The position numbers and the translations under genes are program-made. DNA of 64,000 bases. It comes from Alphaproteobacteria bacterium. Its GTDB lineage: Bacteria; Pseudomonadota; Alphaproteobacteria; UBA828. Under the pieces are notes generated by a model. The model saw nothing but the letters and a program-made list of their open reading frames with translations. It made no database searches and was not told where the DNA came from. The DNA lies in the NCBI GenBank assembly GCA_965214705.1, contig OZ243972.1, positions 1,376,001-1,440,000 of the forward strand, in the 5' to 3' direction. Shown here piece by piece: positions 14,597 to 20,143 of the stretch; positions within the stretch are counted from its first letter, which is position 1; every line of letters starts with the position of its first letter.

Positions 14597-14897
14597 GTCT
14601 CGACGTCGCCCCGATTCCGATTGATGGGGCACCACGAGCGAACCCGCGTTGCCCAGCGACCAAAACAGATGCCGTAATGGGGCACGGCATCAACCTGCAC
14701 CGTTGGAGCCTGTACCGATGGCGGCGAATCGGGGTGTCGTTGCCCTTACACGCTGAGCGTGTCCACGGGGTCTTGCCGAAAGGCGCGCCCCAATCCCTCG
14801 AAAGGAAAGGGCAACGATGGAGTGGACGCCCCCTCCCGACGGCATCGAATCGTGCCAAGGTGGTGTCGTGTTGAACCACCTGAGGAAGGAGGCGTCC

Positions 14898-15827
14898 ATG
14901 GAGAAAGTTACCATCATCGGGATCGACTTGGCGAAGAACAGCTTTCAGCTGCACGGGGCGCGGGATGATGGCTCCGTCGCATTCCGGAAGAAGCTAAGCC
15001 GCGGAAAGTTGCTCGACTTCCTCGCCGGCCAACAATGCTGTGTGGTCGCCATGGAGGCCTGCGCGAGCGCGCACTATTGGGGTCGCGAGGCCCAAGCGCT
15101 TGGACACGAAGTCAAGTTGGTCCCGCCGATCTACGTGAAGCCGTTCGTGAAGCGGCATAAGAACGATATGGCTGACGCGGAGGCGACCACCGAAGCGGCG
15201 CAGCGCCCAACCATGAGATTTGTGGCCGTGAAGACGGAAGAGCAGCAGGCCATGGGGATGCTGTTCCGCACACGCGATCTCCTGGTACGCCAGCGCACGC
15301 AAACGATCAATGCTCTGCGGGGTCACTTGGCGGAGTTCGGCGTCATCGCTCCGCAGGGGCCGGCTCATGTCAGTCGGTTGGAAGCAGCACTCATGGATCC
15401 GGGCTCGGGGCTACCGGAGGGGGTTCGTGAACTGGGTGGCCTTCTGCTGGAGCAGATCGCGGGCCTCAACTTGAAGATCGTCGGTTTGGAGAAGGAGCTC
15501 CGCGCCTGCGCGCGCCAGGACGAAGAAGCTTCGCGACTGATGACGATACCAGGCGTCGGGCCGATCACCGCAATGGCGGTTCAAGCATTCGCGCCTCCGA
15601 TGGAGAGCTTCCGTCGCGGGCGCGACTTCGCCGCGTGGCTCGGGCTCGTTCCAAGGCAGCACACGACCGGCGGCAAGCCGAGGCTGGGCAAGATATCCAA
15701 GATGGGCCAACGTGATCTCAGACGGCTCTTGGTCGTGGGTGCCATGGCGGAGATCGCTTGGGTAGTTCGTCGCGGCACCACAAAGGATCCGTGGTTGCTC
15801 AGTATGATGGAGCGCAAACCGCGCAAG
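14898..15827 (+). pseudogene. IS1111-A transposase/recombinase, N-terminal 310 codons
   Basis: GIDLAK, MEAC, KNDMADA, IPGVG, GLVPRQHTTGG; the frame breaks at ...ERKPRK. Confidence 0.92.
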
Positions 15828-15830
15828 GTT

Positions 15831-15872
15831 AAGGGTTGGGCAGGCTCTCTCTCGAGAGCCTGCCCAACCCTT
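15831..15872. repeat. Perfect 19-bp-stem hairpin at the oriIS end
   Basis: AAGGGTTGGGCAGGCTCTC-TCTC-GAGAGCCTGCCCAACCCTT. Confidence 0.95.
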
Positions 15873-16134
15873 TTGAACGAAGCCGCGGGCCACGAGAGGC
15901 GAAGTTGAGCTATGTGGAAAGTGCGCTGATGTCAGCGTCAGGCGGCATCCACCGGCAGCAGAGTTGCGCATGAGATCGACGCTCGCGCCGGCCTTTCGGC
16001 AGGCATGCGGGCGCACGCTGCGAGGACTGAGCGGGATGTGAGCCGAGGGCTGTCAGCCCGGCCCAAGCGGAGACAGGTTCGGTCGTGCGTCGGCGCTTTG
16101 GCGCCGTTGCGCGGGGCCGAAGCGAGCGGGCGTC

Positions 16135-17187
16135 TCACGGTTTCCCCCTGTGGGTCGGCGGCACGGCCGGCGGACCGCGCGTCGAGCGGGGCTCATGGCG
16201 GCGGCGGATTTCGCGGACGAGGCGCATGACGCCGCCGCAGTGGGGGCAGGCCACGGGCGCGGTGCCGATCTCGGGCTCTTCGTCGGGCTCGGCCTGAGCG
16301 CCGTCCACGCTTCCCTCGGGGGCGGCGCAGCCGAGGGCGCCGAGAGCCTGGCGTGCTCTCTCCAGCGTGCTGGCGCGGCAGCCGTTGGCGAGAATGCCGA
16401 AGTAGCGGATGCGGTGCATGCCGTCCGGCAGGACGTGCATCAGGAAGCGGCGGATGAACTCGTCTGCGCTCACGGTGGCGATGCCGTAGCGCGGCTTTCT
16501 CTGCCCCGGCGCCTTCGGCTTGCGGTGGCGGAAGGAGACCGTCTCGCCGTCGAAGGAGACGATGCGGCTGTCGGAGATGGCGATTCTGTGAGTGTAGTGC
16601 GACAGGTACCGGAAGACCTGCTCAGGCCCGCGGAAGGGCCGCTTGGCGTAGACCACCCAGTCCCTGGCCCGGGCGGCGGCAAGCGTGGCGTGGAACTCGC
16701 CGGGATTGGCGAGGTGGGCGACGGTGCCGTGGAACTCCAGGTCCCCCCGGCCGTGGGCGCGGGCGAGCTCCTTGAGGAAGAGGCGGCGGAACAGGCTGCC
16801 GAGGACCTTGACGGGGGCGAGGAAGGTGGTGCTCCCCGTCTTCCACTCGCCGCTGTCTACGTCGAAGCCCGCGTTGGGCACGACCACGTGCAGGTGCGGG
16901 TGGAAGCGGAGCTTCTGATCCCAGGTATGGAGGACCGCGGTGCCGCCGATGCGCATGCCACCGTGGTGGGGATCGGCGGCGATGGTGCGCAGGGTCTCGG
17001 CGACGGCCCGGAAGAGGATGTCGAACACCACCCTTCGGTTGCAGAAGGCAATGGCGGCGACCTCCTTGGGCAGGGTGAAGACCACATGGAAGTAGGGCAC
17101 CGGCAGGATGTCCCCGGCGCGGGCCTCGCTCCAGAGGTTGGCGGCGAGACCCTGGCAGGTCGGGCAGTGGCGGTTGCGGCAGGAGTT
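16135..17187 (-). pseudogene. IS91-family (Y2 HUH) transposase, C-terminal part
   Basis: NSCRNRHCPTCQ, YFHVVFTLP, LHTW...HPHLH (HUH), YLSHY (YxxxY), RIRYFG, CPHC. Confidence 0.92.
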
Positions 17188-17199
17188 CTTATGAGCTCT

Positions 17200-17532
17200 C
17201 TCCGCAAGGCCCGGCTTCATCTACGTCAATGGCATTCGCAATCTCTCCACTCGAATCCGCGGCCGATGTCCAGGCAGAACGTCGTTTCCACGCAGCGATC
17301 CGCCACGCTGCTCAGCTCTTATCCGGTTCGGAACTCCGGCGCTTGCCGGCTCCGTGACCCCAATACCGCATCCAGGCGGTGGTGACGTTCCGGGAGGCGG
17401 GACCCATCTGTAGAACGGTGCCAAGCGGCGACCCAACTCTTGCCCGGTCACACGCCTTGCCCGGCATCCTCCGCGGCCGCGTCCGACCACGTCGGAACCT
17501 CCTGTATTTTCCCGTTCGTTCGGCCGGTGCCC
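17200..17532 (-). ncRNA. Putative bridge/seek RNA of IS1111-B (boundaries approximate)
   Basis: Non-coding region downstream of tnp containing segments that match both target arms and both donor-junction arms, separated by hairpins. Confidence 0.75.
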
Positions 17533-18729
17533 TCAGGAGACGATGGCGCCCTCAGGCACCAGTCCTTGGGTGGCATAGCGCCACAGCGCGATCAGCAGCT
17601 TGCGCGCGACCCCCACGATCGCCCGCTTCCTCGCTCGCCGGTCCCTCCCGCCACCGGCATCCCTGGCGACGTAGGCGTGGAACCACTTCGTGATCGCGCT
17701 TTCCGGTTGCAGCTTCAGCCAGCGCCAAGCCATCTGGATCATGTGCTTCCTGACATGCGAGGGGCCGGCCTTGCTGATGCCAAGATCGTGGTCGACATCT
17801 CCGCTCGCCCACGGCACCGACGTCAACCCGGCCCAGCTGCCCAACTCCCGGCGATTGCGGAAGTCCCGATAGAACACCTCGCCAGCCAGCAGTGTGGCGT
17901 CATTGAGGCCGATGCCATGGATGCGCGTAAGCGCCGCGATCATCGCCGTCCCGTCACGATTGGTCGCGTCCTGGGCTTTCCGGCCAGCCTTCAGCAGGGC
18001 CCTCTTCTCGGCCTCGATCATCTCGATATGCTCCTCAACCAGGCGAAGCATCCCCACCGCCCTCTCAATCTCTGCCCGCGCACGCGGCGGCAACGGCGCC
18101 CCATAGCCCGTCCGCGCGGTCGCGAGGCGTTCGAGGAAGTCCGGCTTGCGCGGCGCCAGATCGAAGATGCCGTGCAACTGCAAGAGCCCTTTGATCCGGT
18201 TGTTGACGCGGGTACGCTCGCTGATCAGCGTGTCCCTCTCGCGCAGCAGGCGCTTGGCATCCTCCTGGTCCACATCGGGCACGCGCACCCAGGACATGGC
18301 CTCCGAATCGCCTTGGTCCCATGCCTTCAGAGCCCGAACCATCCTCCTCGCGTCGATACGGTCGGTCTTTTTCTTCTTGGCGCGCCGGTTCACCCGCAGG
18401 CTCGCCGGATCGTTCATGAAGATATCGATCTCCGCGTCACGGCGCTCGATATCGCGGGCAAGCCAGAACCCCTCGTAGCCCGCCTCGTAGGTCAGCATCA
18501 CCCGAGGACGGGCGCCGAGCTCCCTCGCCACCCGTTCCCGCACCGACCCGACGAGATCCAACAGTCCCGCCGTGTCGGCAGCAGCCAGTGTGTGGATGCT
18601 GATGCTGCCACCCGAGGCATCCGGGCAATGCACGCCAACGATCCACGATTTGAGGCTGATCTCCACCGCGACATAAATCGTGCTACTACTTGCGCCTGTC
18701 AGCGCGGTCGTGTCTGGACCATCCGACAT
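17533..18729 (-). CDS. IS110-family transposase/recombinase (IS1111-B)
   Basis: VAVEIS..W, YEAGYEGFWL, KTDRIDA, IHGIG, PWASG (catalytic Ser), ISKAG, VARKLLIALW. Confidence 0.92.
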   Translation of the reverse strand: MSDGPDTTALTGASSSTIYVAVEISLKSWIVGVHCPDASGGSISIHTLAAADTAGLLDLVGSVRERVARELGARPRVMLTYEAGYEGFWLARDIERRDAEIDIFMNDPASLRVNRRAKKKKTDRIDARRMVRALKAWDQGDSEAMSWVRVPDVDQEDAKRLLRERDTLISERTRVNNRIKGLLQLHGIFDLAPRKPDFLERLATARTGYGAPLPPRARAEIERAVGMLRLVEEHIEMIEAEKRALLKAGRKAQDATNRDGTAMIAALTRIHGIGLNDATLLAGEVFYRDFRNRRELGSWAGLTSVPWASGDVDHDLGISKAGPSHVRKHMIQMAWRWLKLQPESAITKWFHAYVARDAGGGRDRRARKRAIVGVARKLLIALWRYATQGLVPEGAIVS

Positions 18730-18837
18730 CCGTCCACTCCGTTGTTGACGATTCCGCTCGGAGAGAAGGTGCTGGCCTTCTCTCCGAGCTTGTCTAACCG
18801 CCAGAATCGATTCGGTGCCACCGTGCTCATGGTATCT

Positions 18838-19026
18838 GAAGAGCGGATGCTCGCGCCCGCAGCCCTCGCAGGCGTACATGTGGCCGCCGAGCACGGCGGT
18901 GCGGCACGCCTCGATGGCGCCCATGACCTTGAGCCGGGCGGCGTCGATGCGCCCTTTGTGGCGCTCACGGAAAGCGGCGCCGGCGCGGCGGAGGATCTCC
19001 GCCACGCCCGCGCGTTCGGCCTCCAC
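18838..19026 (-). pseudogene. IS91-family transposase, N-terminal 63 codons
   Basis: VAEILRR...AIEACRTAVLGGH..CEGC (first half of the Zn-binding domain). Confidence 0.9.
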
Positions 19027-19032
19027 GCGCCG

Positions 19033-19911
19033 TCAGTTGCGCAACGCTGCGAAGCCTGAGATCGGGTGGTCGAGGCCCTCGAACATCTTGCCGGTGACGC
19101 GGGCGTAGTGACGGGTCGTGTTCGCGCTTCGATGGCCGAGCATGTCCCGGATCACCTCGATATCGCCGCCGCGCTCGAGGAGATGGGTCGCCGCCGAATG
19201 GCGCAGGCAATGGAAGGTGTAGCTGCGGTCGAGCTCGGCAATGTCGCGCGCCCTCCTGAAGGCGGCCTGCAAGGTCTCCGTTGCGATGGGCCTGTCGAGC
19301 GAGACGCCGTAGAAGAGCCAGCTCGTCGGACGCGGCCAGATGTTCCTGTAGTAGGCGCGCAAGTAGTGGATGACGATGTCCGGCAACGGTGCCATTCTCT
19401 CGGTGCCGCCTTTGCCGGAGGGGATGTGCAGCAGCTTCTTCTCCGACAGGATGTCGCCGACCTTGATGGCCAAGGTCTCGGAGATGCGGAGCCCGCCGCC
19501 ATAGCCGGTGACAATGGCAGCACGGTGGCGGAGGTCGGGCGTCGCAAGGATGAGGTGCTCGACCTCCTGCTCCGACATGTAGCGCGGCAGCTTGCCGGGC
19601 TTCTTGCGGGAGCGCAGGCCGGCGACGTGGTCAGGCCAGCCGAGTGTGTCGATGTAGAGGAAGTTCAGCGCGGCGAAGGAGACGTTGGTCGTGCCCGGAC
19701 TGAGCCCCTTGTCGATCCGCCCCAGGTACCACTGGCGCACCTGCTCGGCGTCGAGCTCGTCCGGCGAGGCGTCGTAGTACCTGGCCAGGTTCTTGATCTC
19801 GCAGATGTAGGCCTTGGACGTGCTCGCGGCCAGATTGGCGATGCGGAGCTGCTCCTCCATGCGCTGGCGAAGAGGGGTGACGGTGTTCGTGTCGCACGCG
19901 GTCCCGGTCAT
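19033..19911 (-). CDS. Tyrosine recombinase (integron-integrase-like N-terminal SAM domain)
   Basis: PLRQRM...; catalytic R (GLRISE), K (GKGG), HCLRH, LGH, Y (TRHYA). Confidence 0.93.
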   Translation of the reverse strand: MTGTACDTNTVTPLRQRMEEQLRIANLAASTSKAYICEIKNLARYYDASPDELDAEQVRQWYLGRIDKGLSPGTTNVSFAALNFLYIDTLGWPDHVAGLRSRKKPGKLPRYMSEQEVEHLILATPDLRHRAAIVTGYGGGLRISETLAIKVGDILSEKKLLHIPSGKGGTERMAPLPDIVIHYLRAYYRNIWPRPTSWLFYGVSLDRPIATETLQAAFRRARDIAELDRSYTFHCLRHSAATHLLERGGDIEVIRDMLGHRSANTTRHYARVTGKMFEGLDHPISGFAALRN

Positions 19912-20143
19912 TATCGATCTCCCTGGATCGCGACGGCGCGCCGCCGGACCGATCCGGCGACGGTCCGTCGCAGGGGTCGATGCTAACCACTGGTGATCGG
20001 GAGGCTGCTGGGGATCCGCCACCCGACGGGCGGAGCGCCACTGACGCAACCGGGAAGCGAACGCACAGAACAAACGGCACCCGCGACGCCTCGGAAATGA
20101 ATGAACTCTACGCCGCTAACTCCGCGTAGCGGCTTCGTTCAAG

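Follow-up and report, generated by a model that had tools for sequence, protein, structure and literature searches.

An IS1111-type element within an IS91 transposase gene

We analyzed a stretch of 64,000 nucleotides (nt) of contig OZ243972.1, here called the window, in which an insertion sequence (IS) of the IS1111 type splits the transposase gene of an IS91-family transposon. Coordinates without a contig name are window positions, and element orientation is that of the minus strand. The window comes from genome G000, which is 7.92 Mb in size, consists of three contigs (C1-C3) and has a reported contamination of 8.7%. We consider it highly probable that the IS1111-type element inserts repeatedly into IS91 at one specific site and that an RNA guides it there.

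The host IS91-family element occupies positions 15824..20142 (minus strand) and is 2669 bp long without the insert; its ends were derived from approximately 100 genomic copies. Its transposase gene lies in two parts. The N-terminal 63 codons (18838..19026, minus strand) encode the first half of the zinc-binding domain (positions 1-48 of the Zn_Tnp_IS91 profile). The C-terminal 350 codons with the stop (16135..17187, minus strand) start with NSCRNRHCP and encode the remainder of this domain (profile positions 52-90) and the Y2 domain (Y2_Tnp). Pfam hits on the two flanks cover 18838-19026 and 16138-17187. The split transposase scored 327 bits against NCBIfam transpos_IS91 (cut-off 125), and the presence of Zn_Tnp_IS91 and Y2_Tnp agrees with the definition of the IS91 family by a Y2 HUH transposase with an N-terminal zinc-binding domain. 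The zinc-finger codons are split at CCGCTCTTC|AACTCCTGCC, between ...H-P-L-F and N-S-C-R-N-R-H-C-P. In 71 other IS91 copies the site is empty and uninterrupted (CCGCTCTTCAACTCCTGCC), and the exact 19-mer is found 68 times in the genome. Therefore the interruption is a simple insertion of 1650 bp without target duplication.

The boundaries of the IS1111-type element (17188..18837, minus strand, 1650 bp) were set with the 71 empty sites, and the junctions read ...GAGCATCCGCTCTTC|AGATACCATGAGC... and ...GAGAGAGCTCATAAG|AACTCCTGCCGCAAC... on the minus strand. The 109-nt left end begins with a 7-nt extension, AGATACC (18837-18831), followed by the subterminal repeat ATGAGC (18830-18825), the two together covering 18825..18837 (minus strand). 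The transposase gene follows (17533..18729, minus strand; 398 amino acids (aa) and stop; open reading frame (ORF) without stop, 18729-17536). Downstream of it lies a non-coding region of 345 nt (17188..17532, minus strand), delimited by alignment with 17 relatives, which we presume to hold the gene of a seekRNA or bridge RNA together with the right end. The right end (17188..17196, minus strand) consists of the repeat GCTCAT (17196-17191) and a 3-nt extension, AAG (17190-17188). An Rfam scan of 16500-19500 gave no family at E below 0.9, with two chance-level matches only.

The transposase was assigned with Pfam and NCBIfam. It scored 33 bits with PF01548 DEDD_Tnp_IS110 (cut-off 29, a partial match), 45.8 bits with PF02371 Transposase_20 and 174 bits with NCBIfam NF033542, 'IS110 family RNA-guided transposase' (cut-off 140). 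Its first acidic residue appears, from the translation, to be E (VAVEIS). IS1111 elements are described as having 7-nt left and 3-nt right extensions outside subterminal repeats of 'usually 11-13 bp' (PMC11187229) or '7 to 17 bp' (PMC11208160). The extensions AGATACC and AAG fit this rule exactly, and non-coding sequence is longer downstream of the gene (345 nt) than upstream (109 nt), as in the IS1111 group. The repeat ATGAGC/GCTCAT, in contrast, is perfect over only 6 bp (7 bp in relatives of approximately 55% identity). Likewise, the transposase has 398 aa instead of the typical 330-350, and the motif GL-P----S/TG has its P displaced; the region reads AGLTSVPWASGD, with GL and SG 6 residues apart. 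The element likely belongs to the IS1111 group proper, with which its layout, end extensions and guide order agree while transposase length and repeat do not. It may instead be a member of a sister branch that shares the IS1111 layout.

Occupied and empty sites in the genome

We counted copies of the element in G000 with blastn and obtained 27 pieces. These correspond to 14 full copies of at least 99.9% identity, four full variants (96.7, 96.0, 92.2 and 86.3% identity), three copies each in two parts and three fragments. The near-identical copies have 99.94-100% identity. The element is probably active, or was so very recently. The IS91 site holds 16 of the 18 full-length copies and 3 of the 3 split copies, that is 19 of 21, all at the same nucleotide. 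All 19 are in the same orientation and without target duplication, which agrees with the IS1111 group. A first-pass annotation of the window had asked whether other copies sit at the N-S-C codons of IS91, and they do so in G000 and on two metagenome contigs. It had also raised the possibility that a second IS91 copy, beyond the window end, is hit; the junction of this copy, at approximately 64728, is empty (row E_C1_1440729_0).

Fourteen of the 16 full-length copies at the site have both IS91 arms adjacent. One of the other two (C1:1873053-1874866) has its own last 165 nt (element positions 1486-1650) repeated before the IS91 right arm; this tandem right end is aberrant and includes the ATAAGAG region described below. 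In the other (C1:4025031), a group II intron cuts the left arm of IS91 at a distance of 9 nt upstream. The three split copies are interrupted by a 2752-bp IS66-like element with 8-bp duplications (C2:520096-522847, C3:687936-690687 and C3:1715128-1717879), at three different positions in the IS. The IS66-like element has ends GTAAGCGGTA.. and 33 full copies in the genome, and the nesting here is of IS66-like in IS1111-type in IS91. G000 is altogether very rich in IS, with approximately 100 IS91-family copies, the 33 IS66-like ones, several IS110-family lineages, IS21-type elements and group II introns.

Among approximately 100 IS91 junction regions, 71 were empty and contiguous, three were empty with a small change of the site, three belonged to diverged empty relatives, and the rest were occupied or disrupted. 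The IS91 copies are approximately 99.6% identical and about one fifth of them carry the IS. An intact transposase of 413 aa is kept in 63 of 65 empty full-length copies. Each insertion splits this gene. The term 'hyperparasite' of the first-pass annotation overstates the case if a selected role is meant by it.

Several empty or disrupted IS91 copies deserve description. At C1:3005632 the empty site reads CCGCTCTTC-AG-AACTCCTGCC; the extra AG at the insertion point equals the first two or the last two bases of the IS. It may be an excision scar and would shift the frame of the IS91 transposase; in the published work on IS1111, rejoined targets were not detected. Three further empty copies have an altered target (C3:1695087, C3:1745261 and C2:15360), two with CTCTTC changed to CTCTCC (F to S) and one in which the codon AAC (Asn) is missing. 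Such changes may have arisen by chance, as an escape from insertion, or as scars. Four IS91 copies (C1:791408, C3:1615236, C1:4037210 and C3:2984178) contain group II introns 10 bp upstream of the IS site (GAGCA|...|TCCGCTCTTC); the reverse-transcriptase ORFs of these introns run antisense to the IS91 gene. The left arm that adjoins the IS copy at C1:4025031 is a fifth one cut by an intron, and only 9 nt of it are kept. The same 20 bp of IS91 thus serve two different RNA-guided elements.

Independent insertions at the IS91 site

Nineteen occupied sites need not be 19 insertions. A single ancient insertion could have been followed by spread of the IS91::IS composite, mobilised in trans by rolling circle, or by gene conversion, and the targeting would then be illusory. 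Mobilisation in trans is plausible, given approximately 100 IS91 copies at about 99.6% identity with nearly all empty full-length transposases intact; the identity of the IS copies is likewise in line with such spread. We aligned 79 full-length IS91 copies, 14 of them occupied, over 62 informative columns. Three occupied copies share one haplotype, so that spread as a composite or by gene conversion is possible for some of the 19, and this tells against counting each as an insertion event.

The 14 occupied copies nevertheless represent 11 haplotypes, and seven of these are identical to haplotypes of empty copies. The host copy in the window belongs to a diverged IS91 subfamily with approximately 30 differences, and its IS is one base off the other copies. 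Another occupied host is only approximately 80% identical, with flank differences 16 nt left and 17 nt right of the junction; therefore neither transposition of the composite as a unit nor homologous conversion explains this copy. IS variants of 100, 96 and 92% identity each sit at the IS91 site, and in metagenomes the corresponding site of other IS91 variants is likewise occupied by a variant of the IS. Moreover, the covariation of guides with flanks in relatives, described below, needs no such process. Occupied IS91 in several lineages, including the relative at approximately 80%, means that there were several independent insertions; we conclude that their number is at least five. Some copies, a minority, may owe their position to gene conversion or to transfer within an IS91::IS composite. 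As an account of a subset this rival may hold; as an account of all copies it is improbable.

Guide-like segments of the non-coding region

The first-pass annotation had pointed to four guide-like segments downstream of the transposase gene, and all four were found. The first, GGCAAGAGTTG (17434..17444, minus strand), is the top-strand target guide. It is made up of a 10-nt slot, GGCAAGAGTT (17444-17435), and a scaffold G, and its reverse complement, CAACTCTTGCC, agrees with the target CAACTCCTGCC at 10 of 11 positions. The second, CCGTTCTACA (17418-17409), agrees with CCGCTCTTCA at 8 of 10 positions, one of the two differences being a U.G wobble. The bottom-strand target guide to which it belongs (17408..17418, minus strand) consists of scaffold CCG (17418-17416), a 6-nt slot, TTCTAC (17415-17410), and AG (17409-17408). 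The left-arm guide as originally drawn included CCG. The slot TTCTAC stands, and CCG is scaffold conserved in all 17 relatives, therefore not programmable. Compared by itself with the last 6 nt of the left flank, CTCTTC, the 6-nt slot matches at four of six positions with one U.G wobble. The merged guides had been said to read P-F-Y-N-S-C in frame; the arithmetic is right, and the real site encodes P-L-F-N-S-C, or P-L-Y-N-S-C in the metagenome contigs L067 and L072.

The top-strand and bottom-strand matches (17444-17434 and 17415-17408) overlap on C|A at the DNA level. The same arrangement, with the top-strand match placed 5' and an overlap of both matches at the insertion point, is published for the seekRNAs of IS1111 elements (PMC11187229).

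As a chance control we made 5000 dinucleotide shuffles of the 345-nt region. A right-arm match of 10/11 occurred in 33 of the 5000 and a left-arm match of 8/10 in 315; both target arms in the right order within 60 nt were found in none. The donor-like segment ATAAGAG appeared in 54 shuffles and GGTAT in 620. The pair of target arms is therefore far beyond chance and ATAAGAG moderately so, while GGTAT alone is not.

The two donor guides fared differently. ATAAGAG (17316..17322, minus strand) is a likely donor guide that joins the last 5 nt of the right end to the first 2 nt of the left end. It is ATAAGAG where the right end reads ..CATAAG (the reference clade and the relative pC) and ATAAAAG where the right end reads ..CATAAA (pB, L018 and L036), and this covariation makes it credible. 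The possible guide GGTAT (17363..17367, minus strand) is complementary to ATACC of the left end. It overlaps the 3' strand of a conserved hairpin, CCGC/GCGG. Relatives have AGATCCT-ATGAGG at the corresponding left end, and the U-to-G change that they show in GGTAT fits the hairpin and the changed left end alike. Because it lies within the hairpin stem, its covariation with the left end is confounded and the evidence for it as a donor guide is weak.

The element begins with AG, and this dinucleotide recurs both behind the 6-nt slot and within ATAAGAG. In the 55% relatives the target, too, carries AG at +1/+2, suggestive of a shared core. The reference clade differs: its four targets all read AA at these positions and have a single core base in common with the element.

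Natural variation of the putative guides

We aligned 17 distinct non-coding sequences, from the reference clade (the window element and its close variants) and from relatives of approximately 55% identity. The latter comprise pB and pC from G000 and L015-L019, L026, L034 and L036 from other genomes of the same genus. All 17 show a conserved scaffold and two hypervariable slots, one of 10 nt between GTG(A/G)CCG and GGG and one of 6 nt between CCG and AGA(T/A)GGG. RNAalifold on these sequences predicted the slots on opposite sides of one internal loop. The closing stems show compensatory changes (pair 53-103: AU 9, GC 5, GU 3; pair 47-107: CG 12, UA 2, UG 3). A first RNAalifold run with 11 sequences was poor and was replaced by the 17-sequence version, and single-sequence minimum free energy folds changed with the window chosen and were left unused.

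In 10 of the 11 elements examined, the 10-nt slot was the best or near-best match to the element's own right flank, and off-diagonal slot-flank comparisons mostly scored 3-6. The reverse complement of the reference slot, AACTCTTGCC, matched the flank AACTCCTGCC at 9/10. The same score was obtained for the 86% variant (AACGCCTATT vs AACGCCTATC of the intact empty site at C3:1422157), for L011 (AACTGGTGGT vs AACTGGTGGA) and for L036 (AGGTGATGTT vs AGGTGATGTC). L018 scored 8/10, and the copy inserted in an IstB gene scored 10/10. For pC the slot GCCAGTTCTC scored 10/10 with one flank and 8/10 with the other, and pB_C1 scored 8/10. The 6-nt slot matched the last 6 nt of the left flank at 6/6 in pB_C1, pB_C3 and L018, at 5/6 in pC and L036, and at 4/6 with wobbles in the reference clade. 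Slots thus change together with flanks while transposase and scaffold stay 85-97% identical. This covariation is natural reprogramming, or retargeting, among the reference element, the 86% variant, L011, pB, pC, L018 and L036.

These results bear on the idea that the transposase protein itself recognises the target DNA and that the complementary non-coding segments are coincidental. The GGTAT match is indeed compatible with chance. Against coincidence speak the combined target match, absent from all 5000 shuffles, and the shift of slots with flanks under a nearly constant protein and scaffold; in addition, RNA guidance was shown experimentally for other members of the family (PMC11187229). Recognition by protein alone is scarcely credible.

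Other observations do weigh against guidance by these segments. The 10-nt slot has an A.C mismatch at +6 with every IS91 variant seen, and the 6-nt slot has one mismatch and one wobble to IS91. The slot of pB_C3 does not match its right flank (5/10), those of L084, L126 and L130 match their own flanks at only 7/10, and the register is shifted by 1 nt in pC and by 2 nt in pB_C1. The relatives come from only two clades of one genus and from metagenomes, and independent covariation events are few. As for transcription of the region, contigs of a relative of approximately 92% identity, covering the non-coding region and the 3' part of the gene, were found in four metatranscriptome runs of one study (X1-X4), which documents presence in an RNA library and does not prove transcription. 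In these runs 5-6% of sampled words were found; contigs 90-95% alike cover most of the element, and one of 760 nt spans 17188-17916, with no information on RNA ends or strand.

Other targets of the element and its relatives

We scanned metagenomes with a pattern of the conserved scaffold around the first slot. This gave 90 stretches, and among the 80 that were listed nine were true relatives; the other 71, which lacked the remaining scaffold, we discarded as unrelated or due to chance. On L067 and L072, two other IS91 variants are interrupted by a 91.5% variant of the element between ...H-P-L-Y and N-S-C-R-N-R-H-C-P, at CCGCTCTAC|AACTCCTGCC; in L067 the right flank shares 85.8% identity with the IS91 of G000. 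L084, L126 and L130 (90.7%) as well as L011 (85%, a Defluviicoccus metagenome-assembled genome) lie in a DDE_Tnp_1 gene at ...I-A-L-I-Y|N-W-W-S-L-F. The remaining relatives, L056, L094, L104 and L114, consist of the non-coding region and right end only, with no transposase gene upstream. A solo copy of this kind is also present in G000 (C2:623309-623587). Such copies recall the extra ssr9 copies of ISPpu9 (PMC12288879); they may be products of decay or sources of guide RNAs that act in trans. The metagenome contigs may come from kin of the same genus and are therefore not fully independent. A search of genome contigs for related loci gave three, of which L011 was useful and L012 and L013 were distant. 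In a plasmid collection we found four weak matches and no close relative.

Two variants in G000 sit in IstB genes. The 96.7% copy (C3:428447) is exactly at the Walker-A motif (G-T-G-K-S), and an identical empty site is present at C1:621480. The sequence CAACTCTTGCCCG, the reverse complement of the 10-nt slot with scaffold, matches the antisense strand of this site at 13 of 13 positions, a better fit than to IS91 and a further point against IS91 as the programmed target. The 86% variant (C3:483684-485333) is at the IstB C-terminus, ...L-D-R-I-V-H|N-A-Y-R-I-E-L. It is one A short at the right junction (CATAAG|ACGCC vs the expected CATAAG|AACGCC), either by a later 1-nt deletion or by an imprecise event.

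One may therefore ask whether IS91 of G000 is only a near-cognate target that wins by abundance, the true one being the IstB Walker-A site or an IS91 variant encoding P-F/L-Y-N-S-C with TCT. The 13/13 match, with a copy at that very site and its empty twin, favours this, as does the A.C mismatch seen in every IS91 variant. TTCTAC also fits the metagenome IS91 sequence CTCTAC (5/6 and a wobble) better than CTCTTC. The 6-nt slot, for its part, matches the IstB site at only 2/6. Only one of 21 copies is in IstB, though that target has just two copies in the genome. Three IS variants and the metagenome variants use IS91, and related guide variants retain AAC TCN TGY. We regard a cognate target other than IS91 of G000 as rather unlikely. 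The IstB insertion, with a perfect 10-nt arm and a poor short arm, suggests that the long arm is the main carrier of specificity, and IS91 may win partly through its abundance. RNA-guided insertion programmed against IS91, as first proposed, is thus favoured by the published guide order and the covarying slots and limited by an imperfect guide and by the perfect IstB match; the first-pass interpretation is partly supported.

Every resolved target in the group is within a gene of another mobile element: IS91, IstB (two sites), DDE_Tnp_1 and, for pC, the 3' end of an IS110-family transposase gene. The IS91 target is used by the reference element, the 96% and 92% variants, L067 and L072. ORFs neighbouring pB_C1, L018 and L036 are transposases (DDE_Tnp_1, DDE_3 and IstA-type helix-turn-helix). 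An ISAs1-type transposase in the flank of pB_C3, a guess from motifs, was dropped as Pfam gave no confirmation. All reference-clade targets share ..C|AAC...

The first-pass annotation placed the target in the conserved zinc-finger codons. Five diverged IS91 copies that encode the same or a similar motif, two with CCGCTGTTC|AACTCGTGCC and three with CCGCTTTAC|AATTCCTGTC, are all empty. Although the numbers are small, five of five empty copies with synonymous or variant sites indicate recognition at the level of nucleotides and not of the protein motif. Read in the IS91 frame, the slot is AAC-TCT-TGC in the reference, AAC-TCG-TGC in the L084 group, AAC-TCC-TGT in the L056 group and AAC-TCA-TGC in the fragment at C2:623587. 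The slot of the L084 group matches the two empty diverged IS91 copies of G000 at 10/10. It looks as though slot variants track synonymous N-S-C codons of IS91; we keep this as a hypothesis, because the three non-reference variants were not found in IS91; L056, L084 and the C2:623587 fragment lie in unrelated sequences.

From these targets a broader picture may tentatively be drawn, which we put forward with reserve. The whole IS1111-type clade would be specialised in coding motifs of other transposons and would switch between them by exchange of the 10-nt and 6-nt slots while keeping ..C|AAC... Its targets would include L(F/Y)|NSC of IS91, VH|NAY and Walker A of IstB, IY|NWW of DDE transposases and the 3' end of an IS110-family gene, and its guides would seem to track synonymous NSC codons.

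Other features of the window

The host IS91 element also contains a tyrosine-recombinase ORF (19036-20073, minus strand; Pfam Phage_integrase). An unrelated second IS110-family transposase ORF (14817-15908, plus strand, 363 aa; DEDD_Tnp_IS110 and Transposase_20) is single-copy in G000. Its final 85 nt or so overlap the IS91 right end, and IS91 appears to abut or truncate it.

The 63 N-terminal IS91 codons are open in frame through the 109-nt left end into the IS transposase, which gives a frame of 497 aa (17533-19026, minus strand). Such a fused frame (497-499 aa) is also present in the 96% variant, L067 and L072 and is absent from the 92% variant. It may be due to chance (about 1 in 3 for 36 GC-rich codons, by our estimate) or be a route of expression from the host transposon. 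We dropped it as evidence, chance being about an even bet. A candidate promoter, TTGCGG-17 nt-TACCAT, was seen by eye across ..CATAAG|AGATACC.., and it may become active when the ends are joined.

Discussion

We propose the following course of events, by analogy with studied members of the family. The element would be copied into a circle that joins its two ends (..CATAAG|AGATACC..), and the transposase would bind an RNA from the 345-nt region downstream of its gene. In this RNA, two short guides would face each other across an internal loop. The 10-nt slot would pair with the top strand immediately to the right of the insertion point, and the 6-nt slot with AG would pair with the bottom strand immediately to the left. 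Another region of the RNA (ATAAGAG, perhaps GGUAU) would recognise the joined ends of the element. For the present guide the best abundant match in the genome is CTCTTC|AACTCCTGCC, the codons L-F-N-S-C of the IS91 zinc-binding domain. With this match in a transposon of approximately 100 copies, insertion has been repeated, in one orientation and without duplication, and has split the IS91 transposase each time. The sequences show the site specificity, several independent insertions, the fit of guide to flank and its covariation among relatives; production and binding of the RNA, the circle, the promoter at the joined ends and any selective role against IS91 are supposed from what is published on the family.

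The layout resembles that of ISEc11, ISPa11, ISKpn4 and ISPst6 (Siddiquee et al. 2024, PMC11187229), in which a DEDD transposase is followed by a long non-coding region. The 7-nt and 3-nt extensions outside subterminal inverted repeats, the lack of target duplication, and the order of the guides with their overlap at the insertion point are also shared. Natural retargeting by replaced matching segments is described in the same paper for the pair ISEc11/ISXne4. Unlike these elements, ours has a transposase of 398 aa vs 330-350 and a repeat of 6-7 bp vs 11-13 bp. Its target is the coding sequence of a transposase of another IS family, not a short linear site, a repetitive extragenic palindromic (REP) sequence or attC. 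Their seekRNA was shown experimentally, while that of the present element is presumed.

A fixed target inside another mobile element, on which the IS rides and which it can cripple, is also described for IS1111-family members, namely IS4321/IS5075 in the terminal repeats of the Tn21 family and the attC-targeting ISPa21, ISKpn4, ISPst6 and ISPa25 (titles cited in PMC11208160 and text of PMC11187229). Those targets are non-coding sequences of recombination sites or transposon ends; here it is the zinc-finger coding motif of IS91, with sister elements in IstB, DDE and IS110-family genes.

Like the bridge RNA of IS621 (Durrant et al. 2024, PMC11208160), the putative RNA would have two parts, a target-binding internal loop and a donor-binding part, and both strands would be paired around a shared core dinucleotide, a role taken here by AG. 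In contrast to IS621, it lies 3' of the gene and the guide order is reversed; moreover, reference-clade targets have AA against AG of the donor (core identity 1/2), and no right-hand donor guide can be clearly made out.

Group II introns that home into insertion sequences are RNA-guided mobile elements as well, and those of G000 occur 10 bp upstream of the same site in four IS91 copies; they use a reverse-transcriptase mechanism unrelated to the IS110 family.

A full-text literature search found no report of an IS110/IS1111 element that targets the IS91 transposase gene, or coding motifs of transposases in general; the lists of targets for more than 300 ISfinder entries that accompany PMC11187229 and PMC11208160 lay outside the search and may include such a case. 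As far as the accessible literature goes, the natural specificity for IS91 claimed in the first-pass annotation is new. The seekRNA/bridge RNA mechanism was already published in 2024 (PMC11187229, PMC11208160), and IS1111 elements were known to target mobile elements.

In summary, one genome offers 19 hits and 71 empty sites for a single guide, together with an off-target that fits the 10-nt arm perfectly and the 6-nt arm poorly. It makes tolerated mismatches visible, namely A.C at +6, one mismatch in the short arm along with a wobble, and a core of which one of two bases is identical. The alignment of 17 relatives separates programmable slots from fixed scaffold, which is information needed for use as a programmable recombinase. 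Transposons here parasitise the coding sequence of transposons, IS91 being invaded by the IS and, 10 bp away, by an intron, and the IS by an IS66-like element, and this bears on what limits IS bursts in IS-rich genomes. About one fifth of approximately 100 IS91 copies have been knocked out, and in the broader picture put forward above with reserve the element would be a natural RNA-guided brake on a transposon burst.

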